DNA of 64,000 bases from Eledone cirrhosa. Its lineage: Eukaryota. This document shows, piece by piece, positions 1,499 through 64,000 of this stretch. Location of the stretch: contig OZ024743.1 in assembly GCA_964016885.1 (NCBI GenBank), positions 79,980,001-80,044,000 of the forward strand, read 5' to 3'. The notes beneath the pieces are model-generated. The model was not told the DNA's origin. It was given only the letters and a program-made list of their open reading frames with translations, and made no database searches. Each line of letters begins with the position of its first letter. Position 1 is the first letter of the stretch. The position numbers were made by a program, and so were the translations under genes.

Positions 1499-3247
1499 TT
1501 ACCTCTCTGCGTCCCGGGGTTCGGGTCGCTCAGTTTCCATGGGGCTGGTGGAGGGGTTGATGGGTGGGGTGGTGGTTTGTGGTGGTGTGGGGGTATTAGT
1601 GTGTGGAGGGGTTGGGATCTTTGGAGTTGTGTGGGTGTTTGAGGAGGGGAGGGGAAAACCTTTCAGGAGGACGCGGTTGAGTGGCCTGGTGCAGGGTGGG
1701 CCCACGTCCTCAGGGTACATGTCTTTTAAAGTTTTGAAAATGTCAAGTGGGATTTTCACCATTTTCAGGTTAGGGAGCCCCATTGCCGTTACGAAATTCG
1801 GCCCTTCGGTTTGTATCGAAGGGTTGGTTTCTACTTTTAAAGTTAGGTTTTCATTGTTTTTGTTTATGTATGTGTAGAGTTTTTGTGTTGTTGTGTTTGT
1901 TTTTGCTTGTTGTTGTTGAGTGAGTTTGCGTTTTATTGTCTATGTTGTGTTGTCAGGTGGGGTTATTTTTGTTTGTGTGGTGTGTGTACGTTTTTTTCTT
2001 TTCACTTTTTGGAAGGGAGCCCCCTCGTCTTCCGACGATATGAGCTCCTCTTCCGTATTGGAGGGGAGGGGTATATCTCCGGGTTGTGTATGAACTGTTT
2101 TTGTATTTGTGTTCTGTGTGGTGGGGCTGGGTGGGACCGTGTTTTGGGTTGTTTTCTTGAGCTGTTGTTGATGTTGTTGTTGTTGTGGTGGTGGTGGTGT
2201 TGATTTTTGTTGTTCTGGTGGAGATGGTAGTGTATTTTGTTGTTTTTGTGATGGTGGTGCTGGTTGTTTTTGTTGTTGTTGTGGTGTTTGTAGCAGTGGT
2301 TTTTTAGTTGTTAGTAGAGGGCAGGCCGTCCTCAGGTGACCTCTGCCAGCGCAGTGGTAACATGAGGGTCTCCTGCCTTCCACTGTGATATTTATGTAGG
2401 TTCGCCCATCCAGTAGCACTCGGTCGGGTATTCCGGAGATTCTCTCAGGTGTCATCTGTAAGAGAACCTCCAGACTTTTCCCCCCGAACAGTCCACTGGT
2501 GGACTCCCCTGCTGAAATTAGTATGTCCTTATCTAGGTCGGTAAATCCTGTTAGGACGGACCAGATGTTAATTTCTGGCGTAGGGCTCCACATTCTTATC
2601 CTTTGTGTTCTTCTTCCTTTATATGTGGGGAAGAAGGTGTATTGTGGTGACACTATAGGTGCCACCGAATATTTCTGAGCCAGCATTTCGTCCTTCATTC
2701 GGACCATAATGCTGGCATACAGCTTTCCTCTTTGAATAAAGAGTATGTCATTTTTCATTTCTTTCAGAACCAGCTCGATTTGACTTTCGGTCAATTGCAC
2801 TGGCTTTCTCGTTTCGTTGGTTATGGTTCTGTAGCTTACGGTATTCTTGTAAATCTGTTCACGCACTTCTTCTGGGGAGTTGATCGTAAAAGAACCATCC
2901 TCCCCAAAAGATACGTATTTTCTAGCCTCTAGCAAATTTTCCTTGGCGTTCGTGATGTCAATGGCTTTGTATTCCGTGGCTCTCCTGAGTGTTTGGGCAA
3001 AAGAAATTTTGTCTTTGTTTGTTGTTGTAATGTTGTTGGTTTCCTTATTTGTGGTGTTATTTTTTTCTTGAAAATTAATTTTTTCATTTGAATTGAAATT
3101 CTTTTTTTCATTGGAGAGGAGGGGTTGTTCAACAGTTTGAACTGTTGTTCCCTCTTTCCCGCTTGTTTTTTTGGTCGGCGTGGCGTTCGCTTCCAATATG
3201 GCGATATCGTTTTCGACGATATCGTTATCAACGATATCGATAAACAT
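1499..3247 (-). pseudogene. LINE ORF1 (gag-like nucleic-acid-binding protein with CCHC zinc knuckle), interrupted by one in-frame TAG at 1940-1942
   Basis: ORF 1940..3247 contains CYHCAGRGHLRTAC. The frame continues without stops past the TAG (TIKRKLTQQQQ...MGLPNLK...) into ORF 1499..1783 and ends at TAA 23 nt before the ORF2 ATG. Confidence 0.85.
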
Positions 3248-3499
3248 TTCTGAAATATTTATTTTTCACCCCAAAAGGGGTGAAAATATATTTACCCGAC
3301 GTCTAGAGTCCCAGACTAGGGGTTACAGTTAATTATACAAAAGAATTCAAAAAAATCCACTCACAAAATTAGCAGGTAAAAATCCAAATCACAGAGCGAT
3401 ATGACACACGTCTACTATCCTCAGACAGACAGACAGACAGACAGACAGACACACAGACTAACAACAAATTAATCAAAGAAGCAAGGTGGAGATAATAAT

Positions 3500-3611
3500 A
3501 ATTGTTTCTACTTTAGGCACAAGGCCAGCAATTACCCAGTGCATTACTGGTACTTTATTTTATCGACCCCGTAAGGATGAAAGGCAAAGTTAACCTCGGC
3601 GGGATTTGAAC
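3500..3611 (-). mobile_element. tRNA-derived SINE family A, 5'-truncated copy
   Basis: Matches the other copies: GTTCAAATCCCGCCGAGGTTAACTTTGCCTTTCATCCTTACGGGGTCGATAAAATAAAGTACCAG. Confidence 0.8.
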
Positions 3612-3985: not shown

Positions 3986-4247
3986 TGCTGACCAGGACTA
4001 CCATGTTGCTTGTTTATTTCCTTTCTTTGGTTTGTTTTCATCCTTCTATGTTGTTCACTTGTCCCCCTCGCTTTACGCGAATTACTGGTCCCAATAACTT
4101 TTTTTAGATTATTGCTCGCACCAACCTGAGGTATCTGATTTTTAATGCGATGAAATACCAATGATGGTTGAAAAATCACTGACGAAGGACTATTTTTATC
4201 ATATGTAACCCATGTGCAAACCACGCAGTATTCTTCTTTCTTCTCAT

Positions 4248-4250
<3 letters not shown>
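3986..4250 (+). mobile_element. Short (TA)n-flanked retroelement 3' fragment (probably a PLE pseudo-LTR) carrying a permuted hammerhead-like structure
   Basis: Bounded by (TA)n on both sides; homologous to 10090-10280. Confidence 0.6.
4088..4190 (+). ncRNA. Candidate permuted, pseudoknotted hammerhead ribozyme with kink-turn (copy 1)
   Basis: GGTA-TC (4130-4135), GAAA-TACC (4152-4159), CTGACGA (4179-4185), stem I TGATTTTT/AAAAATCA; covaries with copy 2. Confidence 0.65.
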
Positions 4251-4505: not shown

Positions 4506-5410
4506 CTTTATGGTATGAAGCATGAGTGAGAGAGTTAGAATGAGGGAGGTGTAGGGGAGAGTGAGAGATATGGAAAGAAACAGATGTGGACACACAAGGT
4601 AGAATGTCGACAGAGATAATGCGGGGTATTCCGTCTCCTACTACACCAGAACCCCACCAAAGTACCACCTGTTGACTGCTAACTTATTTATCTTCACCTC
4701 GGTGAGATGTGAACTCAGAGATCCGAGAGTCGCAACTAATAACGTGAAATTTAATCTGGTGCTCCTTCGGCTTTGTCAATTCTCCGCCTTAATATAACAA
4801 ATGTATGTTCACTGAAATGTTCTAGAATATGAGAGATATGAGGGGAAAGATAATTTGATTGATCCATCTGATCCATTGATATCTATAAGTATATTAACAG
4901 TGTGTCTACTGTGGAGTTGATATATTATATTGATTAATTAAATGAACACAAAGCGTCGGGTAATGAAACGAGGAGGGAATCTCCGTGGTATGCAAATTAC
5001 ATCACAGCTGGTTGGAATATCTTACAAGATAACTGTTAAGAACAACTGCTAACCAATTCCTTTGGTGAAACCTGAAGTTACAGAGACGAAAAGTCTCTTG
5101 TAAGACGAACAGATGCCAGACAAACAGCAGGGAGAAAACTCCTGATGGTGAACACAGCGCTGGAAACACGTAACATAAAAAGAGGCCGAACAGCCTCGTG
5201 ACGTATGTGTAATGATATGAAACAAATGTGCAAGTCTCCATGTTGTCCACCCTAATGATGGAAATAGCAGTTAAAGGTCTCCCTCGTCATATCTTTACCA
5301 TCCTAAAATAGTAGATATTGGACGATCAAGGTAGGACTAGGGCTGAACTAGAGATAAACAACATCAAAACAATATATTTCATGATGATACACAGCAGCAC
5401 ACACACACAC

Positions 5411-5499: not shown

Positions 5500-5608
5500 G
5501 GAAAATGTTTAACCCCTTGGGGTTAAACATTTTCCTATTACCCACTCTACTACGCTAAGTATTGAGTACTCTGGTGCGTTATGGTCCATCTGGTTCCTTA
5601 CCACAAAT
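5497..5608 (+). mobile_element. Hairpin-plus-tail mini-element (PLE pLTR-derived family), short-hairpin variant, tail interrupted by a SINE
   Basis: ATAGGAAAATGTTTAACCCC-TT-GGGGTTAAACATTTTCCTAT followed by the same TACCCACTCTACTA...TTATGGTCCA tail as 7142-7219. Confidence 0.8.
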
Positions 5609-5773
5609 GGCAGTATAAGTATAGAGTCGGACACCATGCTTTCGATCTGAGTCCCTTTACGATCTGAATTCAAATCCCGCCGAGGTTAACTTTGCCTTTC
5701 TCCTTACGGGGTCGATAAAATAAAGTACCAGTAATACACTGGTAATTGCTGGCCTTGTGCCAAAAGTAGAAAC

Positions 5774-5776
<3 letters not shown>
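5608..5776 (+). mobile_element. tRNA-derived SINE family A
   Basis: A-box-like TGGCAGTATAAG, B-box-like ATTCAAATCC, family body and tail CAAAAGTAGAAACAATT. Confidence 0.8.
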
Positions 5777-7018: not shown

Positions 7019-7022
<4 letters not shown>

Positions 7023-7217
7023 GAACGAGTAGGACCCCGACGGCTGAGCTCAAGCCGTTTCGACGGCTAATTCTGGACTCAGTCCAGAATTAGCCGTCGA
7101 AACGGCTTGAGCTCAGCCGTCGGGGTCCTACTCGTTCCTATTACCCACTCTACTACCCTAAGCATTGAGTACTTTGGTGCGTTATGGTCCACCTGGTTCC
7201 TTGCCACAGTTCCTCCG

Positions 7218-7219
<2 letters not shown>
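7019..7219 (+). mobile_element. Hairpin-plus-tail mini-element in (TA)n: perfect 61-bp foldback plus 78-nt tail
   Basis: 7019-7079 is the exact reverse complement of 7081-7141; contains the HHR 3' half GAAA-CGGCT-tgagctc-AGCCG-TC; near-identical copy at 59531. Confidence 0.9.
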
Positions 7220-9562: not shown

Positions 9563-9597
<35 letters not shown>

Positions 9598-9607
9598 AAT
9601 ATATATG

Positions 9608-9724
<117 letters not shown>

Positions 9725-9725
9725 G

Positions 9726-9813
<88 letters not shown>

Positions 9814-9821
9814 TTTATATA

Positions 9822-10280
9822 TATCTCTTTCGTCTGCGACTTCACAAAACTTATGTTTACCGAATTCGTAGACCAGACCCCTTCTTCTTCTTCTTCTTCT
9901 TCTTCTTCTTCTTCTTCTTCTTCTTCTTCTTCTTCCCCCCTCCCCCCGTTAGACTTGTGCGAAATTCTTTCCTTGCTCACATTTCAACCAGGTTTGATGG
10001 TCTTTTGTCTCTTGTTCACGATTTCACCGAGTTTATATTCATAGAGATCTGGGACTTGTCTATTTCTTCTCACTTTCCGTTGCTTAAACCTTTTTGTTTG
10101 TTACCCTGGCGTCCCCTTTGTTTACGTGTCCCAACGACTTTTTTTAGCCGTTGTTCGCACCAACCTGAGGCATATGGCCCTTAAAGCGATGAAATGCCTG
10201 GGACGGTTGGAGGGTCACTGATGAAGGACTTACTTTTTCATATGCCCCACCATTTGCAACGCGCAGCCATCATTATTATC
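9822..10280 (+). mobile_element. (TA)n-flanked retroelement 3' end (possible RT C-terminus plus 3'UTR/pLTR) with permuted hammerhead
   Basis: Homologous to 3986-4250; upstream translation [10 protein letters not shown]../[16 protein letters not shown] weakly resembles the end of a PLE RT thumb; internal (TTC)n. Confidence 0.55.
10128..10229 (+). ncRNA. Candidate permuted, pseudoknotted hammerhead ribozyme with kink-turn (copy 2)
   Basis: GGCA-TA (10169-10174), GAAA-TGCC (10191-10198), CTGATGA (10218-10224), stem I TGGCCCTT/GAGGGTCA. Confidence 0.65.
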
Positions 10281-10294
10281 ATATATATATATAT

Positions 10295-10430
<136 letters not shown>

Positions 10431-10458
10431 GTATCTGTGTGTGTTTTTATATATACAT

Positions 10459-10505
<47 letters not shown>

Positions 10506-10511
<6 letters not shown>

Positions 10512-11388
10512 AGAATTAGTATATCTACCAACATATGTATACAGATGCATACCTATGCTAGCAAATATATATGTTTTGTCTTAGTAACTTTGTGGTTCTA
10601 TGCAAGGGGATGCAGAATAATTATATGAAAGACGTACATGAGAAAGTTATGAAAATTGACTTACCAAAATTTCACTCCAACTAATTAGTTTCTGTAAGGG
10701 GATATATATGGTTACGGAGCGTATCCACAGAGAAACCTTACGTCATCAGGGAGTCTATTCTCAGCTAAGCTTCCAGGCAATGTGAGGACACTGGGAACTT
10801 ATATAAAAATAATTCAGTGGATGGAAAAAAGCGAGCGGGGACTAGATTCCAAGACATTGAAAAATTCACTGCCTACTTGGTCACGTGGCAAATCAAAAGA
10901 ATCAATCACGTGATACCGAGGTTAATCAGTGAGGAGTGGGGTGCTATTAAGACAGGGCCTAGCCACTACTATTAATCATAGTAGTAATTTCGGCAAGTTT
11001 TGCTCAACAAATAATTTGGAGATAATTATAAAGAATTAGTATATCTACCAACATATGTATACAGATGCATACCTATGCTAGCAAATATAATTCTCAGTGT
11101 CACGTGATTGATTCTTTTGAATTTGCCACTTGACCAAGTAGGCAGTGAATTTTTCAATGTCTTGGAATCTAGTCCCCGCTCTCTTTTTTCCATCCACTGA
11201 ATTATTTTTATATAAGTTCCCACTGTCCTCGCATTGTCTGGAAGCTTAGCTGAGAATAGACTCCCCGATGACGTAAGGTTCCTCTGTGTATACGCTCCGT
11301 AACCATATTTATCCCCTTACAGAAACTAATTAGTTGGAGTGAAATTTTAGTAAGTCAATTTTCATAACTTTCTTATTTACGTCTTTCA

Positions 11389-11392
<4 letters not shown>
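10506..11392. mobile_element. PLE-derived inverted pLTR pair (arms about 10623-10913 and 11100-11392) in (TA)n, each arm with a hammerhead
   Basis: Arms of about 290 bp are reverse complements; additional ~65-bp direct repeat at 10506 and 11026. Confidence 0.8.
10674..10754 (-). ncRNA. Type I hammerhead with long stem II (second copy 11260-11340 on +, core mutated to CCGATGA)
   Basis: ACTCC-CTGATGA-c-GTAAGG...CCTTAC-a-GAAA-CTAATTAG-TT-GGAGT. Confidence 0.7.
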
Positions 11393-11456
<64 letters not shown>

Positions 11457-11459
11457 TTG

Positions 11460-12515
11460 GAGTATTAGGATGAATAGGTTTTTGAAAGTCGTTATAATTT
11501 ATGTGAGAACAGGTAGAGAAATTAAGTTTTAGTTTGGTATTTTTAGATGTAGGATTTTCATTTGGTGTTTGCTGGTAATATTCGGTTGTACGTTTGAAGT
11601 ATTATTGGTGCAAGGTATATAGACTAATTTGTTTTTGTAGCCCCTTCTATCTAAAGCTTCGTTATAAAAGGGCGCGTTTTTATCGAATACATCCTGGTTA
11701 GATGAAAGGTTAGAGATTCTGAGTGAGATGTTATATGCTAGGTTTTTAAGGATAGATATAGGGTGATTGGATTGTGAGTGTATGTAATGTAAGTTTTGGT
11801 TAGGTTTATGGTAAGGTTGGTAGATACCCGTAGATAGGTCTAAAGTTATATCTAGGAAATTGACTATTTTACTGGTGTTTTCAAATGTAATAGTGAGATT
11901 GTAACAGTCTTTGAGGAAAGTTCCAATAAGTTTTTTTTATTATTTTTTTAAAATCTTTTTCTATTTCTGATAGGCTAAGATTAGTGGAAAGAAGAAGACA
12001 GTCATCATGATATAAACCACCTTTAAGGTGGGGAAAAGATGAATTAATGTTAAATAGAAGAAAGAGGCCCACAAGATCGGTAATTTGGGCGGAATCACTA
12101 GAGCCCATAGTTATGTCGAAGAGATTACTATATGTATTTCTGGTCCAGTATTCCTTCTGAAATTCCAGTAGTGTTTGTCTACCGTGCGTGATAATATTAA
12201 TGTCATCCATAGTTAAGTTTGATCTATTTTTGGCAAATATCAAGGCTTTGTTCAGGAGTATGGGTGATATAGAGGAATAATGAGCATCTATATCAAATTG
12301 TAGAAATGAAGCAGATGATTTATTTCTAATATTAGTAAACCAGTTAATTACTTGGGATGTATTTTCCTAGAGTGGTAAGCTAACGTGTTTTCTTAACTGT
12401 GGGATGATTGTATCTAAAAAATGTTTATTAATGATGTCAATATCTGACTTGGAAGGGCGTATAAGTCTTACAGAAGGATTAGAGTTAAAGTTAGATTTGT
12501 GATCTTTCTGGTTAA
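11460..12515 (-). pseudogene. Penelope-like element reverse transcriptase (decayed)
   Basis: KDHKSNF..PSVRLIRPSKS..VINWF..FLQFDIDAHYSSI..ITMGSSDSAQITDLVG..GLYHDDCL..VNFLDITLDL..YIHSQSNHP; contains stops and frameshifts. Confidence 0.9.
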
Positions 12516-12519
12516 AGTG

Positions 12520-13170
12520 TGGTTTTTTCAGTGCCAAAGGTTCAGTTCTAGTAAATATTTTATTTCTTACAACTTAAATAATAATTCACAACCAGTTGAT
12601 ATGATTAGCAATATTGTACCTAATAATACTAGTAACCACTCTCATATAATATCTAGGACATATAGGAGTATTAATAGCAATTGTAGCACTCATATATCTA
12701 ACTCTAATGACTCTTCACACCTTTATCCTCAAAACCGCTTAATCAATAACCATAACTGTAATTGTAGACCTAATAATGTATGCCCTCTTAATGGAAACTG
12801 CCTTGTTAAAAATATTATTTATTCCTGTACTGTCACAACTACCAATTCCAAAACCTATATCGGTTCTACATCGAATAGTTTTAAGACTAGGTATAATTCC
12901 CATCTTCATACCTTTAAGAACTCTAAGCTTAAACATGCAACCTCTTTATCTGATTTCATATCATTTCTGAAGAGTAATAATACACCTTACACCCTAACCT
13001 GGAATGTGATCGCAAAAGCTGCTTTGTATAAACCCCCAATAACCTTTGCATTCTTGAATCCCATACTTCTATTTATTCTAAACTAAATTTATTAAATAGG
13101 AAATCTGAAATGTTTTCCACTTGTCAACATATCAATCACCATTCCTTTTACTATTTTAAACCTAGTAACT
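12520..13170 (+). pseudogene. Penelope-like GIY-YIG endonuclease with Cys-rich linker (decayed); AT-rich 3'UTR continues to about 15200
   Basis: CNCRPNNVCPLNGNCLVKNIIYSC..TYIGSTSNSFKTRYNSH..LTWNVI, then LLNRKSEMFSTCQH in another frame. Confidence 0.88.
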
Positions 13171-13759
13171 AACTTATGCCAATGTAGATATTTCTATATA
13201 TATATTTAGTAATATTAGTATCATTACATACTTATAACATCCCTATTCGGATCCCTTCAATTTTGATTACAATTTATTATAACCACCCCATCACATTTAG
13301 GCATCTAATTATTTTATTATATTATTGTCTTATTTTACTATACTATGTTTAATAAGCGCCACCTTTATCTGAATGTATTTTTACTAATATTATATTATAT
13401 ATTAGCCATTGCCTCAATCTCAATTTTTTCAGTAGTATACCTTCAATACTTATATAATCTATTGAATATTTAATTAATTAGTATACATTTTTACCTTTAG
13501 ATAATTTCAAAAAACTTTTTTATTCTTTTTTATCATTCGATATTATTTAGAATATGTATATATATTTTTTTAAATAATATACACTGATAAATTATTTTAT
13601 TTCTATTTTGTAATATATTATTATTATTAAATAATTTTTAAAACAATTCTTTAGTTCTATAATCATTAGCCCTAATCATTTCTTTGTGTTATTACACCTT
13701 GACTTACACAATAAATATTTATTTTCCATATAATAATTTGTAACTCTCCTATAAATAAT

Positions 13760-13944
13760 TGTTTCTACTTTTGGCACAAGGCCAGCAATTACCCCAGTGC
13801 ATCACTGGTACTTTATTTTATCGACCCTGTAAGGATGAAAGGCAAAGTTAACCTCGGTGGGATTTGAACTCATATCATAAAGGGCTGTAACTCTTTGCTG
13901 CAAAGCATGGTGTCAGACCCTCTACCGATACTGCCAATCAAATT
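13760..13944 (-). mobile_element. tRNA-derived SINE family A, full length, with TSD
   Basis: A/B boxes on the minus strand; 13-bp TSD TCCTATAAATAAT at 13747 and 13945. Confidence 0.9.
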
Positions 13945-14186
13945 TCCTATAAATAATATTTATGAATTACCTACCTTTTATTCTTAATTTTCTATCAACC
14001 GTTAACTGATTATATTTTTCAAACTCTGTTAAGATAGATTTATTTATGCTTAGTATATAAGACCTTCTTCCTCCTATTCAAATATGTGATGCTTTTTTCT
14101 GGTGATAGCACTTATTCTATATTAGATTTTACTTTGCTGATTATATTTACTCAACATTAATTTATTTGAATGGTTTGATTAATAAT

Positions 14187-14372
14187 TGTTTCTACTTTTG
14201 GCACAAGGCCAGCAATTACCCAGTACATTACTGGTACTTTATTTTATCGACCCCGTAAGGATGAAAGGCAAAGTTAACCTTGGCGGGATTTGAACTCAGA
14301 CCATAAAGGGCCGTAACCCTTTGCTGCAAAGCATGGCGTGCGACTCTCTACTGATACTACCAATCCACCGCT
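14187..14372 (-). mobile_element. tRNA-derived SINE family A, full length; the TSD also encloses 14373-14560
   Basis: Family match; 18-bp direct repeat AATGGTTTGATTAATAAT at 14169 and 14561. Confidence 0.85.
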
Positions 14373-21505: not shown

Positions 21506-22194
21506 AGTTAATTAAGAAATAGAGAAATAATTAAGTGGGGGTGTATTTAGAAGACTTATATTTTCTGTCATGTATTTAGTCAAATGTTGTATTTCGTAGG
21601 GTAAAAGGATTTGAAAGGGTACTTCTGAAACAGTTCCGAAATCTCAGTAAATATAAAGATCTGACAATTGAAATTGAGAAAATGTTGCAACTTAAGGCCT
21701 ATACAATACCAATGTTATTCAACGAACTTGGAATAATAAAAAAAAAAACGATGAATATTGGACTAGATATCAGGTGTGAGCCCCGGGAGTTGGAATGGAT
21801 TTTCCAGCGCGCCTCTCTTGCCGTCCTCCGGGGAAACGCCTTCTCTATTCTGTCCGCCGGAGCTGTGGGGAGGCCACCAATATGATTGACTGACTTGTCA
21901 TTTCATCATCAGATGTTTTTAGATCATCTCCTATATTGACCTGGAAAACCATTTCTGCAACAGATACAGAAAATAGTGCTGAATGGCACTGACCATGTTC
22001 TGAGAAGGGCAACATTATCAATTTAAAAACCTTGTAAAGATATTTACTGTTTTGTTCATGTCCATGTGGTAACATTCGTGAGTCAATTGTTAAATATGTG
22101 TCTCATCATCAAATTTCACTTTAGGTTTCAGGTTGACACTCGCCAACCTATGAGAACAAAAGCAGAATTCAAAGAAGTTTCATATAATAATAAT

Positions 22195-22400
22195 TGTTTC
22201 TATATTTGACACAAGGCCAGCAATTACCCAGTGCATTACTGGTACTTTATTTTATCGACCCTGTAAGGATGAAAGGCAAAGTTAACGATGAAAGGCAAAG
22301 TTAACCTCGGCAGGATTTGAACTCAGAATGGCAAGGGACGTAACTCTACGCTGCAAAGCATGGTGGCCGACCCACCACAGATACTGCCAACCCCCGCGCT
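22195..22400 (-). mobile_element. tRNA-derived SINE family A with TSD and an internal 19-bp duplication
   Basis: TSD AGTTTCATATAATAATAAT at 22176 and 22401. Confidence 0.9.
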
Positions 22401-24811: not shown

Positions 24812-25603
<792 letters not shown>

Positions 25604-26320: not shown

Positions 26321-26428
26321 AGTATGAATACATGAGTCTGCGTGCGTGTGTGTGTGTGTGTGTGTGAGTATGAATACATGAGTCTGTGTGTGTGTGTGTG
26401 AGTATGAATACATGAGTATGAATACACA
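26146..26428. repeat. Minisatellite GAGTATGAATACATGAGT(C/A) interspersed with (TG)n
   Basis: About 7 repeats read directly. Confidence 0.85.
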
Positions 26429-26429
26429 G

Positions 26430-28590
26430 GTATTACTCAATCTTTAATAGACATATTATTAAACTCTCATATTCCACCACTATGAATTTAGCGCAGAATA
26501 TTAATAGAATTATTAATAGAAACTTAAAACCTAACCAGTATAGCATTAATACCCCTAGCAATATCCAATATAATGTTACGGCTCCCAATAATATAAATTT
26601 AGACAAATGTAATTGTAGAAATAAATCTAACTGTCCTCTAAATAATAATTGTTTAGTTAAAAATATAGTATACAATTGTAATGTCAAAACAAATGAAAAC
26701 TCCTTTAACTATGTCGGCTCTACTTCCACAGACTTTAAATCTCGTTTTAATAACCATAAATGTTCCTTTACGAATATTGGTAAAAAAATCTTCAACTTCT
26801 CTATCTAACTTATTATGGGACCTGAAATCCAAGAATATTAACTATTCTTTACTTTGGAAAATTATTTCCAAAGCTCCTTCATACACTGCTTTATCCCAAA
26901 ATTGTTCTCTTTGTGTTCAAGAAATATTCTTTATACTAAAAATAAGAACTCTATTAATTTGCGAAATAATTTATTCAGTTCCTGCAAACATCATTTAAAC
27001 TCAACTTTTAAATATATATATAAAATGTAATATATGATTTATCTCTTTTACATAATGTCTTCTATATCTATATATGATTCATATCTCTACTTCACATATA
27101 TATACTATATACTTTATATTATTACACCTATCGATAGATTATAAAAAAATGTTTATATGACTGCTTGAAACTCCTTTAAGAAAAATTTTTTTCTTGAAAA
27201 ACTTACGGAAGGTTTTAGGAAAAATCTTATGAACATTTTTTTGAAAATTCCTTTGAAAGATATAGAAAAAAACATTATTTTCATACCTTCCGATATTTTT
27301 ATATTTTTTATATCTCCAAACGTTTTTAATATATATATCCAAATGTTTATATATATGTGGAAAAACATATGATTTTTATATATAGTTTTTTTTTATATAT
27401 ATGTGGAATAACCTATGGTTTATGCTTTAAATATATTCTTAAGATAAATTTTTTTTAATGTTTTAATTTTAATGTTAATGTTTTAACTTTATAGCAAGTA
27501 AATTTATGACTTCGTATAAAATAACATATGGCCCATGTTTTAATTATATTCTTAAGATAAAAAATGTTTAACTTTTTAACTTTATAACATTTAATCCTTA
27601 GAGTCATCTGAGTTCTTAAAAAATCACTTCTAACTTCCTTTACACTTCCTTACTGTTTTTATAATATAATAAGTGGTTATTCCTTTGTAAACTCTCGTAA
27701 ATTTTTCATAAATTTAGAATTATTTGGATGTTTAAATTTTGACTTACAACTTTTAATAAAATAAACTATATTAGTTTTGCTCTAATGTAAAATAATATAT
27801 ATTTATTGAAATAATTTATAATCCTTAACATTTAAACTAATTATTAATATTAAATTATTAAATTAAATCTTTAATATTAAGGTAAATTTTAATCTTTAAT
27901 ATTAAGGTACATTTTAATCTTTAATTTTGATTTCTAATTTTTAATTTTAATTTAATTTTAATCTAATTTTCAACCTATCATTATAAGTATTATAATCAAA
28001 ACGTAATGAATCCTGTATTATAAATATTATTCTTCCACGCTATTCTCATTTCTTCTCTCATTTAGATATACTTAGGCTGTCTATATTTATCTCTTCATGC
28101 ACTCTATTTTCACTATCAATATATATAATCGTTCTTTCTTTCCTCTTCTATCTTTCTCCTTTCTTTTTTTCTTTTTTCTTTTTTTTCGTTTTTCTATTTT
28201 TTTCTCTCTCCTTTACATATCATCTCCTTCCAACAGTTTAATTTAAATAAACCGTTATCTTTTCAACCTTTCGGACATTCATTTGCATACTGACTCATAA
28301 TTTTATATCACCATCAATAAATGTACTATCTCCACTATCCAGGAAGCTCCAACCGTTCAGGTTGTCTTTTTTTCCGGGTATGTCAATATTTATTTATAAA
28401 ACAAATCTGTAATTTATCTGATGAAAGCGCACCATAATTTGCCTTGGTTGTTCTTGAAATATGTATAATAAAATAAATATGGTTTTATAAATATAGTTTC
28501 CATTTATTAATATATTGTTTATTTACTCCACTAACTGTTGAGTGCTTTATAGCAGTTATAAAAATGTTTAAATTAAATATAACCTCTGCA
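26430..28590 (+). mobile_element. 5'-truncated PLE: frameshifted GIY-YIG (26440-27000), long AT-rich 3'UTR, terminal hammerhead (28413-28472)
   Basis: KLSYSTT..CNCRNKSNCPLNNNCLVKNIVYNC..YVGSTSTDFKSRFNNH../LWKIISKA..CSLCVQE; TTTAT-CTGATGA-..-GAAA-TATGTA-TA-ATAAA. Confidence 0.88.
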
Positions 28591-36571: not shown

Positions 36572-37710
36572 ATATGGTATAAACGTTTGGAGTTGTAAGG
36601 CCAAGACAATGCAGGTATGGATATAGAATATAAATGCAAATGCAAAATATATTGTTGACAATTAGTCTTTTACCTTTAGCCATCCGCAGAGCTATCAGAC
36701 GAGAGGGACTAGATATCCAACTAACCCACTCAGTACCTTCTCTACGCGGACAGTTAACCAAAAGACACTCAACCAGACATGACAGCCGCTGCAGGCTAGC
36801 CAACAGCCCCATCAACGACACAGACCTATGCCACCAGGCCTGCGTCGTATACAGATTAGAGTGCGACAAATGCAGGAATTTCTACGTAGGTAGCACCACC
36901 AGACCACTTCACATAAGAATAAAAGAACACCTCAATACTAACGCTTCCTCATTTAAGAAATACCTAGTGAAATACATAAACACCGACAAAACATAACAGT
37001 TAGGATAGAAGCTAAGGAAAGAAACCTCGGCAATCTTAGAATTAAAGAAGCATTAATTTTAGACAAAACGCAACCACCAATCAATAATAGACTAGAACTC
37101 AACACCCAATTTTTAACATGATAGAGCACCTAACCCCACACTTACACCCCCTCTCACACACACGCACACACACACGCACGCGCGCACACACACACACACA
37201 TACACACACACGCTTACACCTCCACTTATTCTCTCACACACACATACACACACAAAGACCAGTTTTAACATGATAGAGCATCTAGCCTCCACATTTACGT
37301 ATAGACATATCTTCTCACACTCACACACACACGCGCATACTTACGCCTTCACGTATTCTCCCACACACTTAAACATACATGTACAACACTCCTTTTAAAG
37401 GGAGACTACTCTTTATCCACCTAACCTTCACTCTCTGACATTAGAGATAGAATGGAATCTCTATATCATTTCCTGTCAGCATAACTTGGCAAGCTAATTA
37501 GAACACTGGATTAACCTCTTTACTTCCCTCCGAAGAAGAGATATTATCTCGAAAATTAAGGATATTTAAATAAATTTAAGGTAAAAGACTAATTGTCAAC
37601 AATATCTTTTGCATTTGCATTTATATTCTATATCCATACCTGCATTGTCTTGGCCTTACAACTTCAAACGTTTATACCTTATTACACAATGCTTCAAGTT
37701 AACTACAACT
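36572..37710 (+). mobile_element. 5'-truncated PLE with GIY-YIG remnant (36680-37115), hammerhead (37527-37561, CCGAAGA core) and an inverted pLTR piece at its 5' end
   Basis: CHQACVVYRLECDKCRNFYVGSTTRPLHIRIKEH; 36577-36675 is the reverse complement of about 37580-37678. Confidence 0.88.
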
Positions 37711-44340: not shown

Positions 44341-45517
<1,177 letters not shown>

Positions 45518-49974: not shown

Positions 49975-51086
49975 CGATGAATTAGTTTTGCGAGGTTTTT
50001 GATATAAAATCGTGTGTCGAAACAAATATTGTTATACTTGGGGAGGGTCATATTTGTGTAATAATATTGCCAGAATTAATAACAGAACACACTCACTGTT
50101 TGGTTGTAGAAAGGCCCTGAGAAAGACCCACTTAAAGATTAAGGTTGTAGAAAAGCCAGGAACCACCATAAAATACCTGATCAGCAAAACCTACCCTTTT
50201 AAGAAAACCCACTGTACTAATAGGAAATGTATTATATGTAAAGTAAATCACCGGATAAACTGTAAAACTAGAAACGTAGTCTATAGCATAAGATGTACAG
50301 AGGGTACTTGCAGAAACACGACAACAACATACATAGGTGAGACAGCTCGTAGCATAGGTGAAAGGATAGACCAACACTGGGGGGAACTAAAAGGACGAAA
50401 AAATGGTTCAGTACTATACGAACATGCCAGACAACAACACGACGGTAACATAGACAACATAGAAATTAGAATAATATCTAAACATAGAAATGACCCAGCA
50501 GATAGGCAAATCAGAGAGGCCAGCGAAATAGAACCTAGAAGGCCAAAGCTAAACAGAAAAAATGAATGGAATAACAACACCCAAACAAACAATACTGACC
50601 TAAGAGAAGTATGAATAAATAAATACATACACAAGAACAATAACAACAAACACATATAAACACACACTAGTAAACTAAGATAGAATACAATAACCAATAC
50701 ACAGTCACCCAAACACGAACACACATCAAATACTATACACACACGCAAACGCATGCGCAGAGAAAAAAATAAAAATAAAAAAATAAAATAAACAGACTAA
50801 ATAAAGATGGCGTAGGCAAACAATACAACAGGAGGAAACATAATAGCACCACTGACGATGTTGCAGATGTGCAACGAAATAACTTTGTTAGACTATATAT
50901 ATGTGTTTGTGTCTATATTATATTTGTATATTTGACCGTTGGACAGTCAATGGTAACATTGAGGACCGAATAAATTAAATTAACCGATATAAAAGACACA
51001 GAAGCGAAAACCAACCAAACAGTGAGTGTGTTCTGTTATTAATTCTGGCACAATATTATTACACAAATATGACCCTCCCCAAGTAT

Positions 51087-53693: not shown

Positions 53694-54733
53694 AATTGTT
53701 AAACAATATTCAATGATTATGTCAAAGAAAGAGTTTTACAGTAGATTGGAAGCACTCAACTAGAAATAATTTTCTGGAGTTATTAATATTAAAATATAAG
53801 TATTAATAAAATAGATGTTCTTTTGATCAATTACATTTTATTATACATATTTCGGATGTACAACAGTACGTCCTCATCAGACAAAATATAATGATACATG
53901 ACATACCCTGAGATGTTAAATGGTTAAGATTTAATCAAGGTAGTGATTAATCCGATAGAAAATTTTACTTATATTCTATCTATGAGAAAATGCGAAAACG
54001 TAATAAACTCATTAGAGAATGTGTGAGTAATAAAAAATGTTGCATACTGTAAGTGTTCTAAAATTTTAAAGTGTATGATACTACAATATATCTAGGAAAA
54101 CATCTCATGAATCATAACAGCCAGTGATAGCCACTGGAAAAGGATTTATAAAGAGGGAAAAATAAAGTGTGGGTTTTTTTCGAAAGTTAGACGGTTAGAT
54201 TTGAAAATATTTAATTTATAATATTAGGGTGAAGACTCCAGATTTCAGGATTATTTGCTAGTTATTTATATATTATTTATATAAATTCGATAAGTGTGTT
54301 ATCATTTCTAAACTTCTGAATTGTGAGAATAACATTGAAAGGATTTAGCTGGCACATAAAGAATGAAATATTATACTGTTGATTATTTACCTAAATTTAA
54401 ACTTTAACAAATATACCAACATATTAGGTATGTAAAGCTTTTGAAGTACTTCTTGTTATAAATATTTAAATAACTATTATGTATATAGGTATATATTAAT
54501 GAGCCAGTAAGTTTAAGGTAAATAATAACGACGAAGATAAAAATAAAATAAAATAATATGTTAAGGATAAATATATACATATGTATAACTGGGTGTACTA
54601 ATTATTCTTCAACCAAGATATCAACATATTATTAGATATAGGGATGTATATATATAGATATATATTAGGTATTATTAGTGTAGTATACTTTAGGTAAATG
54701 ATAACAGTTAAACTCTTATCAACGTGTTACATT

Positions 54734-54831
<98 letters not shown>

Positions 54832-56655
54832 AAAGAAAAACAAGCAATGAGTGCATGGATAATACAGAGTTCAAAATAATGTCTATAATAATTTTTAGTT
54901 TGGATATTTTCTCTATATTTGAATCATATATATAGAAATGTGGTAGGTATATTTAAAAATATTTAAAAATATATAAAATACAATATATAACTACATATAT
55001 ATTATAATACATTATATTATAAATAAATAAGTAAGAGACCGAAAGTACAGCGAAAAATTCACATTTATATATAAGTTTGAATCCGTCTCAAAATTTAGAT
55101 TTTATATTGCAGTAAGTATATTTAAAAGAAATATATGTTATATTATACTATAAATAATAGATCCAAAACTCATTAAAAATTTGGAGTTATAGATAAGTTT
55201 CATAAAAATTTATGGATTGGGTATTAAACTAAGATTTAAAAGAGATCATAAATGTATTAAAAATTCACAGTTAAATAAATCCATAAATATGTAACGATTA
55301 AGTATTGTACTAAATTATAGATAGAAATAATGAGATAAAGAAATGATGGTGTTGATCAAAGTTAACAAATAATGTTGTGTGTATCAATGTTTAGGCATGT
55401 TAATTGAAAAATTGTCATTCATTCTAACGTTGTTTTTTCTATAGATAGTTATAAAATAAAGCAATATTAAAGGCCATTGATGTTTTTTACTGTTGATTAT
55501 ATATTCCTGGTAACCGAGTTGTTATTGGTTCTTTCTTTCTCGTTTTATGTGAGGCTAAAAAAGTGGACGTAGCTTTATGGAGGCAACTAGAGAATAATTC
55601 ACGTTTTTGTTAATTAGGGTCTCATAATTATTAATAATCAACAGGGTCTCTATTGTAGATGTATTATCCATCCACTCATTGTTTGTTTTTCTTATATGTA
55701 TATATATATTTAAATGTAACACGTTGATAAGAGTATAACTGTTATCATTTACCTAAAGTATACTACACTAATAATACCTAATATATATCTATATATATAC
55801 ATCCCTATATCTAATAATATGTTGATATCTTGGTTGAAGAATAATAAGTACATTTACACCCAGTTATACATATGTATATATTTATCCTTAACATATTATT
55901 TCATTTTATTTTTATCTTCGTCGTTATTATTTACCTTAAACATACTGGCTCATTAATATATACCTATATACATAATAGTTATTTAAATATTTATAACAAG
56001 AAGTACTTCAAAAGCTTTACATACCTAATATGTTGGTATATTTGTTAAAGTTTAAATTTAGGTAAATAATCAACAGTATAATATTTCATTCTTTATATGC
56101 CAGCTAAATCCTTTCAATGTTATTCTCACAATTCAGAAGTTTAGAAATGATAACACACTTATCGAATTTATATAAATAATATATAAATAACTAGCAAATA
56201 ATCCTGAAATCTGGAGTCTTCACCCTAATATTATAAATTAAGTATTTTCAAATCTAACCGTCTAATTTTCGAAAAAAACCCACACTTTATTTTTCCCTCT
56301 TTATAAATCCTTTTCCAGTGGCTATCACTGGCTGTTATGATTCATGAGATGTTTTCCTAGATATATTGTAGTATCATACACTTTAAAATTTTAGAACACT
56401 TACAGTATGCAACGTTTTTTATTACTCACACATTCTCTAATGAGTTTATTACGTTTTCGCATTTTCTCATAGATAGAATATAAGTAAAATTTTCTATCGG
56501 ATTAATCACTACCTTGATTAAATCTTAACCATTTAACATCTCAGGGTATGTCATGTATCATTATATTTTGTCTGATGAGGACGTACTGTTGTACATCCGA
56601 AATATGTATAATAAAATGTAATTGATCAAAAGAACATCTATTTTATTAATACTTA

Positions 56656-56660
<5 letters not shown>
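53690..56660. mobile_element. PLE 3' end on - (55690-53690) plus an inverted copy on + (55700-56660), giving ~950-bp inverted arms each ending in a hammerhead
   Basis: 53792-54745 matches the reverse complement of 55700-56660 with few differences; minus-strand ..ELFSSCLH (GIY-YIG tail) near 55570-55640. Confidence 0.88.
56561..56621 (+). ncRNA. Minimal type I hammerhead (identical copy 53831-53891 on -)
   Basis: TTATATTTTGT-CTGATGA-GGACGTAC-TGTT-GTACATCC-GAAA-TATGTA-TA-ATAAAATGTAA. Confidence 0.85.
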
Positions 56661-56721
<61 letters not shown>

Positions 56722-59533: not shown

Positions 59534-59729
59534 GGAGCGAGTAGGACCCCGACGGCTGAGATCAAGCCGTTTCGACGGCTAATTCTGGACTCAGTCCAGA
59601 ATTAGCCGTCGAAACGGCTTGAGCTCAGCCGTCGGGGTCCTACTTGTTCCTATTACCCACTCTACTACCCTAAGTATTGAGTACTTTGGTGCGTTATGGT
59701 CCATCTGGTTCCTTACCACATTTCCTTCG

Positions 59730-59731
<2 letters not shown>
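59531..59731 (+). mobile_element. Hairpin-plus-tail mini-element in (TA)n, near-identical to 7019-7219
   Basis: 61-bp arms with the same apex CTGGACT-C-AGTCCAG and the same tail. Confidence 0.9.
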
Positions 59732-59765
<34 letters not shown>

Positions 59766-60556
59766 CAGGCATGTCTGAATTAACAAATTATTTGCAGAAA
59801 GAAACCAAAGAAAATATTATATATTAATTTATTTGTCTGTTTGTTTTTAACCTTTGTTTTGTTATTGTTTCCTCCAGCCTCTGAACAATGGAACAGTGTA
59901 AGAGTTTTTTTGTTGAGAGGATTAGAAGACATATACACATACACAGAGAGACACACACGTTTATACACACACATATATTCATGCATAGATAGACACACAC
60001 AAACATATGCATTTATACGCACACTCACACACACATGTGGACAACTACAAACACACACATACATGCCTGCATAGATAGAGACATAAACATACACATGTAT
60101 AAACGCGCACACACACTCACACAGACACATTCACGAAGATACGCATCTATACATTCACATACACACAAACACACATGCATGCATAGATAGATGGACATAC
60201 TCAAACATACGAACGCACACACACATATATGCATACAAACATATACTCACACACATATATACAAAGATATATACACACATATATACATACATATACATAC
60301 ACACGTATTCACTCGCACTCAAACATCCTACATGCACGTATATACATATACGCACGTATATGCGCGTATATACATATACCCTCATAAGGAGACACACATA
60401 CATACACACACCCAGATTTATAGAAAGGTTAGTTTATATGGAAGGCGGCATTAAATTACAAACCTATCCAAATTTACTCTTGCAAGAAACATCATAAAAT
60501 ATCATTGTGGTGTTCCATACTTAGAATATATAACACTAAACATCTAAATTGATAAT

Positions 60557-60744
60557 TGTTTCTACTTTTTACACAAGGCCAGCAATTATCTCAGTGCATT
60601 ACTGGTACTTTATTTTATCGACCCCGTAAGGAAGAAAGGCAAAGTTAACCTCGGCGGGATTTGAACTCAGATCATAAAGGGCCGTAACTCTCTGCTGCAA
60701 AGCATGGCGTCCGCCCCGCTACCGATACTGCCAATACGACCCTG
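60557..60744 (-). mobile_element. tRNA-derived SINE family A, full length, with TSD
   Basis: A-box TGGCAGTATCGGT, B-box GTTCAAATCC; TSD AATTGATAAT at 60547 and 60745. Confidence 0.9.
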
Positions 60745-61299: not shown

Positions 61300-64000
61300 A
61301 CTGGAAATATACAGATGACAGAATCTAGTGTGACACTCTACCTCCCTACACTGGGAATATAGAGATGACAGAATCTAGTGTGACACTCTACCTCCCTACA
61401 TTGGGAATATAGAGATGACAGAATCTAGTGTGACACTCTACCTCCACTGGGAATATAGAGATGACAGAATCTAGTGTGACACTCTACCTACACTGGGAAT
61501 ATAGAGATGACAGAATCTAGTGTGACACTCTACCTACACTGGGAATATAGAGATGACAGAATCTAGTGTGACACTCTACCTCCTAACACTGGGAATATAG
61601 AGATGACAGAATCTAGTGTGACACTCTACCTACACTGGGAATATAGAGATGACAGAATCTAGTGTGACACTCTACCTCCCAACACTGGGAATATAGAGAT
61701 GACAGAATCTAGTGTGACACTCTACCTACACTGGGAATATAGAGATGACAGAATCTAGTGTGACACTCTACCTACACTGGGAATATAGAGATGACAGAAT
61801 CTAGTGTGACACTCTACCTACACTGGGAATATAGAGATGACAGAATCTAGTGTGACACTCTACCTCCCTACACTGGGAATATAGAGATGACAGAATCTAG
61901 TGTGACATTCTACCTCCCTACACTGGGAATATAGAGATGACAGAATCTAGTGTGACACTCTACCTCCACTGGGAATATAGAGATGACAGAATCTAGTGTG
62001 ACACTCTACCTACACTGGGAATATAGAGATGACAGAATCTAGTGTGACACTCTACCTACACTGGGAATATAGAGATGACAGAATCTAGTGTGACACTCTA
62101 CCTACACTGGGAATATAGAGATGACAGAATCTAGTGTGACACTCTACCTACACTGGGAATATAGAGATGACAGAATCTAGTGTGACACTCTACCTCCCAA
62201 CACTGGGAATATAGCGATGACAGAATCTAGTGTGACACTCTACCTACACTAGGAATATAGAGATGACAGAATCTAGTGTGACATTCTACCTACACTGGGA
62301 ATATAGAGATGACAGAATCTAGTGTGACACTCTACCTACCTACACTGGGAATATAGAGATGACAGAATCTAGTGTGACATTCTACCTACACTGGGAATAT
62401 AGAGATGACAGAATCTAGTGTGACACTCTACCTACATTGGGAATATAGAGATGACAGAATCTAGTGTGACACTCTACCTACCTACACTGGGAATATAGAG
62501 ATGACAGAATCTAGTGTGACACTCTACCTCCCTACACTGGAAATATAGAGATGACAGAATCTAGTGTGACACTCTAGCTACACTGGGAATATAGAGATGA
62601 CAGAATCTAGTGTGACACTCTACCTACACTGGGAATATAGAGATGACAGAATCTAGTGTGACACTCTACCTACACTGGGAATATAGAGATGACAGAATCT
62701 AGTGTGACACTCTACCTCCCTACACTGGGAATATAGAGAAGACAGAATCTAGTGTGACACTCTACCTACACTGGGAATATAGAGATGAAAGAATCTAGTG
62801 TGACACTCTACCTACACTGGGAATATAGAGATGACAGAATCTAGTGTGACACTCTACCTACCTACACTGGGAATATAAAGATGACAGAATCTAGTGTGAC
62901 ACTCTACCTACACTGGGAATATAGAGATGACAGAATCTAGTGTGACACTCTACCTACACTGGGAATATAGAGATGACAGAATCTAGTGTGACACTCTACC
63001 TACACTGGGAATATAGAGATGACAGAATCTAGTGTGACACTCTACCTACACTGGGAATATAGAGATGACAGAATCTAGTGTGACACTCTACCTACACTGG
63101 GAATATAGAGATGACAGAATCTAGTGTGACACTCTACCTACATTGGGAATATAGAGATGACAGAATCTAGTGTGACACTCTACCTACACTGGGAATATAG
63201 AGATGACAGAATCTAGTGTGACACTCTACCTCCCTACACTGGGAATATAAAGATGACAGAATCTAGTGTGACACTCTACCTACACTGGGAATATAGAGAT
63301 GACAGAATCTAGTGTGAAACTCTACCTACACTGGGAATATAGAGATGACAGAATCTAGTGTGACACTCTACCTACACTGGGAATATAGAGATGACAGAAT
63401 CTAGTGTGACACTCTACCTACACTGGGAATATAGAGATGACAGAATCTAGTGTGACACTCTACCTACACTGGGAATATAGAGATGACAGAATCTAGTGTG
63501 AAACTCTACCTACACTGGGAATATAGAGATGACAGAATCTAGTGTGACACTCTACCTACACTGGGAATATAGAGATGACAGAATCTAGTGTGACACTCTA
63601 CCTACACTGGGAATATAGAGATGACAGAATCTAGTGTGACACTCTACCTACACTTGGAATATAGAGATGACAGAATCTAGTGTGACACTCTACCTACATT
63701 GGGAATATAGAGATGACAGAATCTAGTGTGACACTCTACCTACACTGGGAATATAGAGATGACAGAATCTAGTGTGACATTCTACCTACACTGGGAATAT
63801 AGAGATGACAGAATCTAGTGTGACACTCTACCTACACTGGGAATATAGAGATGACAGAATCTAGTGTGACACTCTACTTACACTGGGAATATAGAGATGA
63901 CAGAATCTAGTGTGACACTCTACCTCCCTACACTGGGAATATAGAGAAGACAGAATCTAGTGTGACACTCTACCTACACTGGGAATATAGAGATGAAAGA
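61300..64000. repeat. Satellite/minisatellite array, 46-bp unit with 50-bp variants, running off the window
   Basis: CTACACTGGGAATATAGAGATGACAGAATCTAGTGTGACACTCTAC repeated more than 50 times. Confidence 0.98.

Follow-up and report, generated by a model that had tools for sequence, protein, structure and literature searches.

A permuted hammerhead motif with a proposed rebuilt stem II at the 3′ end of an Eledone cirrhosa repeat family, and its counterparts in Naiad elements

Hammerhead ribozymes in which the conserved blocks stand in a non-circular order have been described almost only from environmental sequences. The closest described system to the motif reported here is the type-SGC hammerhead (HRIMA-1 and variants; Eckert 2023, PMC10085705), with which it shares the S-G-C order, an intact core, a short linker between stem I and the G arm, and covarying stems I and III. 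In type-SGC ribozymes, however, blocks C and G form a canonical stem II, accompanied by a I/II helix, and genomes of known organisms were not found to contain them, whereas the present motif has a stem II of 0-1 bp and X and Y helices, and is located at the 3′ end of a retrotransposon in animal chromosomal DNA. Type-CSG hammerheads, known from two metagenomic sequences only (Eckert 2023, PMC10085705), share their block order, three canonical stems, and a helix beside block C with six nematode Naiad consensi and with two metagenome loci; the window form (SGC) differs from them. Type I hammerheads, present in the pLTRs of canonical Penelope elements (PLEs) and in non-LTR retrozymes, likewise lie near the 3′ end or pLTR and cut about 100 nt upstream of the end, but they have the circular order C-G-S and no pseudoknots, and their catalytic strand is on the 5′ product rather than, as predicted for the window motif, on the 3′ product.

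For the Naiad clade of PLEs, the accessible part of Craig 2021 (PMC8557442) reports no canonical hammerhead and lists 10 'HHR_core' and 8 'HHR_half_core' cases; it describes a preference for (TA)n and leaves the 'half cores', Naiad_Ovul among them, unexplained. In a literature search, with most subscription journals outside its reach, neither SGC nor CSG hammerheads turned up for Naiads or for any animal element, and the accessible part of a 2026 retrozyme preprint treats type I alone.

The window, the whole 64-kb stretch of Eledone cirrhosa DNA analyzed here, contains two repeat fragments that carry the motif (carriers 1 and 2; Table 1). Carrier 1 lies between (TA)n runs at 9575-9824 and 10281-10510, and the coordinates place both of the two copies within (TA)n, as an earlier sequence-only reading of this DNA had observed. 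The carriers are 75% identical to each other over 139 nt (E 4e-19; 4082-4219 in carrier 2). The family is highly repeated, with 1150 contigs (run X1) and 2326 reads (run X13) mapping onto 9936-10283, and no contig spans the carrier stretch. Loose ends at the (CTT)18 run suggest that it is shorter in other family copies, and it has probably been expanded in this one. Module A has an X13 depth peak that is partly a RAD read-start effect at 9963; it has no protein match and no Rfam match, and an imperfect short direct repeat lies on its flanks. Neither carrier contains an ORF in which the Naiad domain set (N-terminal GIY-YIG, CxC, DKA, and C-terminal RT with IFD) could be read, and both are solitary fragments as far as pLTR or partial tandem arrangement is concerned; Naiad_Ovul is likewise listed without a pLTR in the accessible part of Craig 2021 (PMC8557442). 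Family-specific patterns had no match in viral contigs or prokaryote genomes.

Table 1. Positions of the carriers and of the parts of the hammerhead motif within the window.
Feature	Positions	Strand	Description
Carrier 1	9825-10280	+	3′ end of high-copy interspersed repeat in (TA)n; no assignable ORF
Carrier 2	about 3987-4250	+	Shorter copy of another subfamily, in (TA)n, with the same motif as carrier 1
(CTT)18 microsatellite	9881-9935	+	Separates the two peptides of the sequence-only reading
Module A of carrier family	9960-10035	+	Second well-covered segment; depth peak in X1 contigs
Strand X	10128-10131	+	Pairs with 10226-10229, the arm 3′ of CUGAUGA
Hairpin joining X and Y	10132-10153	+	Family variants 10135/10150 and 10136/10149 compensatory
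Strand Y	10155-10158	+	Pairs with 10186-10189, the arm 5′ of GAAA; stand-in for stem II
Stem III extension helix	10160-10165	+	Pairs with 10205-10210
Block S	10168-10182	+	Stem III 5′ strand, AUA triplet, stem I 5′ strand; predicted cleavage after A10174
Block G	10186-10199	+	Arm, GAAA (10191-10194), stem III 3′ strand
Block C	10210-10229	+	Stem I 3′ strand, CUGAUGA (10218-10224), arm
Carrier 2 core		+	AUC triplet, predicted cleavage after C4135; GAAA 4152-4155; CUGACGA 4179-4185

The motif occupies 10128-10229 in carrier 1 and about 4087-4192 in carrier 2, with its hammerhead blocks in the non-circular order S-G-C. Each copy has CUGANGA, GAAA and an NUH triplet (AUA and AUC, respectively) with the A15.1-U16.1 pair, as well as covarying stems I and III and a linker of 2-3 nt between stem I and the G arm, short as in type-SGC. 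The predicted cut site is 106 and 115 nt from the element end. In the window copies, the arms that follow CUGANGA and precede GAAA form 1 bp instead of a stem II, A10225-U10190 being the sole canonical stem II pair in carrier 1; the canonical stem is replaced by the X and Y helices, which use upstream strands. These measure merely 4-6 bp in the window family (the equivalent of X in Naiad loci has 4-10 bp), Y is invariant between both copies, and in an unconstrained MFE fold stem III forms and the full model does not. Because blocks C and G, with block C taken as indivisible, are not paired as stem II, the motif is a variant of type-SGC and not a member of HRIMA-1. Rfam hammerhead models had no match on the motif, as expected for a permuted block order; among the matches listed, the window gave microsatellite noise alone, and 20 metagenome Naiad loci gave no match. 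The sequence-only reading had recognized a permuted hammerhead here, and the S-G-C order in both copies agrees with it; what it had overlooked is the rebuilt stem II, with two helices to upstream strands. The permuted motif in the window is real, and its self-cleavage is a prediction from the model.

Between the two copies, seven of the 22 model pairs differ. Five of these, all interior, are still paired (four by two-sided change), and the other two, both at helix ends, break; in the core, the copies differ just at the free N of CUGANGA. Family variants include five compensatory pairs, two in the upstream hairpin, one in stem III (10171/10196) and two in stem I (10178/10214 and 10180/10212), in counts that are unphased and with all five paired changes being C>T/G>A transitions. 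None of the 40 variants listed falls on a core position (37 further variants exist).

The same motif recurs in published Naiad elements. For 53 of the 54 Naiad consensi (all but Cmel) in the accessible part of the source, roughly the final 370-480 nt were inspected by eye, and 17 of these 53 ends contain a non-circularly permuted hammerhead: 11 SGC, one of them doubtful, and six nematode CSG. SGC with an upstream Y helix occurs in nine consensi (Obim, Ovul, Amil, Aacu, Anas, 3_Chem, 2_Movir, Plae, and EuTe), among which the Amil, Aacu, and Anas motifs are nearly identical to one another; Bfor has SGC and a Y helix with a stem I of just 2-3 bp, and Ptep has SGC with another arrangement replacing stem II. 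Naiad_Obim and Naiad_Ovul show the same order and helices as the window copies, their predicted cut site lying some 120 nt before the end. CSG with three canonical stems is present in six of the eight nematode Naiads (1_, 2_, and 3_Nbra, Hcon, Hpol, and Asuum); a second permutation thus occurs in the Naiad clade, which the sequence-only reading had missed. By this by-eye reading, the hosts of the permuted motif comprise octopus, cnidarian, acanthocephalan, crustacean, spider, and nematode. In 36 of the 53 ends no complete motif is seen; there are six partial cores (Sdum, Smim, 1_, 2_, and 4_Dst, and Esco), and nothing is in view in 29 ends, including all 11 bivalves and all four hemichordates. 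Among about 50 Chlamys ends, 12 were viewed by eye in the accessible material and none has the motif. The idea that Naiad/Chlamys elements have a permuted hammerhead as their missing ribozyme is therefore too wide given the bivalve, hemichordate, and Chlamys ends; for part of the Naiad clade it is well supported, by published ends and metagenome loci alike, with cleavage predicted.

Other ends appear to carry other structures. The 3′ end of Naiad-1_Movir has a putative twister-like motif, that of Naiad_Parc has a putative HDV-like stretch, and Naiads may swap ribozyme types. Bivalve and hemichordate Naiad ends, together with metagenome loci L017, L049, and L079, contain a different conserved structured motif after the stop codon, with no hammerhead core; it is possibly another ribozyme or an RT-binding element, and Rfam found nothing in L049.

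A degenerate RT motif, which had no match in viral contigs, fetched 120 metagenome loci, of which 80, with flanks, were analyzed. Most of the fetched loci show Naiad-type RT motifs, and long ones add an N-terminal GIY-YIG. A descriptor of the full architecture gave eight sense matches in the 80 loci, scoring 36.5-49, each of them on the 3′ side of the RT. By eye, L054 shows this layout too, with its core longer by one base; the identical L065 and L070 have the CSG order. Where at least 1200 nt follow the RT motif, the permuted hammerhead is present in 11 of 36 loci (two rows are duplicates and one was found by eye), and the intact motif is absent from 25, one of these being a decayed copy. L060 and L006 encode full ORFs, with N-terminal GIY-YIG and C-terminal RT, and their cores lie 141 nt and 306 nt, respectively, past the stop codon; in L009, the motif is upstream of the ORF, the pLTR position. 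A tree built from 48 RT rows spreads the SGC loci over several deep branches and nests CSG next to L066; L027 forms a long branch whose place is unsure. This topology is compatible with an old origin but is no proof of it. The GC-rich, long-branch L027 has two different SGC motifs 3′ of the ORF, at about 4560-4680 (+) and about 5040-5170 (-), and in L044 a CUGAUGA, with a UUCG hairpin and then GAAA behind it, lies some 1020 nt downstream of the RT motif, possibly a hammerhead in canonical order.

For structural comparison, eight motifs were aligned, with L006 and L027 dropped as ambiguous. Canonical stem II pairs occur in 3/8, 1/8, and 1/8 of them at positions 1-3. The X and Y helices stay paired throughout, using several types of base pair. 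Since the descriptor itself selected these helices, counting their pairs is partly circular, and the test is the shuffle control described below. U16.1 is 18 nt from GAAA in five of the eight motifs, and X is 22-25 nt from Y in six. A covariance model (R1), built from four Naiad loci with 18 of the pairs and no pseudoknots (L004 and L021, misaligned by MAFFT, were left out), missed both window copies as well as L004, L006, L021, L027, and L053.

With this model negative and blastn of the carriers against the metagenome Naiad loci giving no match, the link between carriers and Naiads is architectural only; the published Naiad consensi were compared with the carriers by eye. As far as the accessible part of Craig 2021 (PMC8557442) allows comparison, the carriers have in common with Naiads, especially Naiad_Obim and Naiad_Ovul, the (TA)n insertion, a T-rich 3′ region, the terminal RNA architecture, and a similar end distance, but they differ in primary sequence and Y register and have no ORF. 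The sequence-only reading had also seen, upstream of the motif, a translation weakly resembling an RT thumb, a resemblance that dissolves: the 10- and 17-letter peptides involved lie in different frames around (CTT)18, protein searches with the peptide gave no informative match, and an HMM for the C-terminal halves of 44 Naiad RTs gives negative scores to every carrier frame, as against 8.0 (E 0.002) for the unrelated neighboring PLE RT. The lack of an RT match in the carrier is compatible with Naiad membership, given a 3′ UTR of about 1 kb in the octopus Naiad. The same reading was correct that no GIY-YIG precedes the 3′ end, from the carrier's 5′ end to its 3′ end.

Naiad membership of the carrier thus rests on the shared 3′ RNA architecture, a feature found here rather than a published criterion, and on the (TA)n insertion of both copies, a weak sign in a window so rich in TA runs. 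The ribozyme model could be right and the carrier belong elsewhere, another PLE clade, a retrozyme-like element, or a SINE having acquired the RNA module. The absent ORF and the want of sequence matches to Naiads would suit this alternative, and the differing ribozyme types among Naiad ends (SGC, CSG, and twister-like) suggest module exchange. It is nevertheless unlikely, given that the carriers agree with Naiads, octopus ones included, in their seven-helix layout, in their spacings, and in how far the motif lies from the 3′ end, whereas other repeats in the window have ordinary type I-like cores (25313 and 56572) and Hydra and other PLEs have canonical hammerheads in the accessible part of Craig 2021 (PMC8557442). 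A carrier derived from Naiads, or mobilized by them, is quite likely.

In combination, we consider it likely that the carriers are 5′-truncated or non-autonomous members of a high-copy family derived from or mobilized by Naiad PLEs, with a 3′ S-G-C hammerhead and a rebuilt stem II. The sequence, the block order, the covariation, and the presence of the same architecture 3′ of Naiad ORFs are observed; the structure and function described next are inferred. In Naiad loci, the upstream strand Y would partner the base before GAAA, and Y and the G arm would act as stem II; the arm after CUGANGA would pair with the second upstream strand, X, and X, the hairpin, and Y would close a four-way-type junction, with the window family retaining one putative A-U pair of canonical stem II. 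By analogy with other PLE hammerheads, the motif probably cuts transcripts that are tandem or read through, at 106-115 nt before the end of the element, and so yields unit-length RNA. The S-G-C order would leave the catalytic strands on the 3′ product, and four helices (X, Y, the extension, and III) would clamp the 5′ product to it, so that cut RNA would stay together and re-ligation or circularization, or a nicked intact template, would be favored. As inserted copies span the cut site, the template would have been uncut, re-ligated, circular, or tandem.

The motif could instead be hammerhead-derived and not cleave alone, serving as a protein-binding or RT-positioning structure or cleaving only with an element protein or as a dimer. 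The stem II of 0-1 bp and a fold that needs several crossing helices would agree with this. In the accessible part of the work on an anole PLE (PMC11167929), RT starts 85-92 nt downstream of the hammerhead cut, and cleavage required protein and was dispensable for insertion in vitro, findings that leave room for a protein-dependent or structural role. We nonetheless see rather little chance of it, because CUGANGA, GAAA, and the UH triplet persist in different phyla with covarying stems around them, the nematode and L065 CSG forms possess all three canonical stems, and SGC and CSG RNAs do cleave in earlier assays.

A six-permutation descriptor run on the 64-kb window returned as SGC matches exactly the two copies, plus two CGS matches. 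With the full-architecture descriptor, the window copies score 42.0 and 40.5 and the next window match 22.5; the best score in 20 shuffles of the 80 Naiad loci is 32.5. The explanation that short motifs fell into this arrangement by chance in AT-rich repeat DNA, for which one could cite the roughly one SGC match per shuffle of the 80 loci that a loose descriptor yields and the strong antisense match in L027 (score 41), is exceedingly improbable and has largely been refuted, since the full-architecture scores exceed all 20 shuffles, the stems contain compensatory changes, the motif has a fixed position after the ORF in Naiad loci and recurs in published Naiad consensi, and the L027 antisense match is itself a well-formed motif.

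On a wider reading, the motif would be an active hammerhead of four strands, in which an upstream strand replaces the covalent link between block C and stem II, and this form could be the ancestral Naiad ribozyme across animal phyla, replaced in some lineages by CSG or other ribozymes; we hold this proposition to be evenly balanced. If true, the four-strand hammerhead would be a permutation that none of the six orders in the scheme of Eckert 2023 covers, non-circularly permuted ribozymes would exist in animal chromosomes at high copy number, and environmental CSG sequences could come from Naiads. Apart from this wider reading, the permuted motif of Naiads would answer an open point about PLEs, that Naiads thrive without a canonical hammerhead, would explain the 'half core' notes of Craig 2021, would give non-circularly permuted ribozymes a host and a biological context in animals, and suggests that the hammerhead core tolerates a stem II on a separate strand, beyond detection by existing descriptors and Rfam.

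The window contains further mobile elements. At 11458-13086 lies a decayed PLE of another clade in an inverted arrangement, with RT and thumb on the minus strand (MGSSDSAQ..LYHDD) and, on the plus strand at 12448-13086, a GIY-YIG linked to CxC whose Pfam match (E 0.00025) is below cut-off; the element resembles the Hydra-type RT in the accessible part of the Craig 2021 supplement (PMC8557442). As a parent of the carrier this element was ruled out: it is of a different family, has its RT on the opposite strand, and shares no sequence with the carrier. Additional GIY-YIG-like PLE fragments of several types occur at 26422-26998, 36634-36996, 45052-45381, and 50003-50614. Canonical minimal type I-like hammerhead cores are present in other repeats at 25313 (+), 56572 (+), and 53880 (-), the latter two in the arms of an 817-nt inverted repeat (53781-54597 / 55855-56671), a PLE-like inverted structure. 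A SINE-like repeat of about 185 nt, which presumably resembles octopus SINEs, has many copies (3496-3611, 5608-5776, 13751-13939, 14178-14365, 22189-22390, and 60548-60735). Palindromic MITE-like repeats are found at 7022-7218 and 59534-59730, a foldback element is inserted in (TA)n at 10506-11390, and a tandem array of 46/50-nt units occupies 61300-64000. Finally, a 441-aa ORF with a zinc knuckle, like LINE ORF1, lies at 1940-3265 (-), upstream of more coding fragments.
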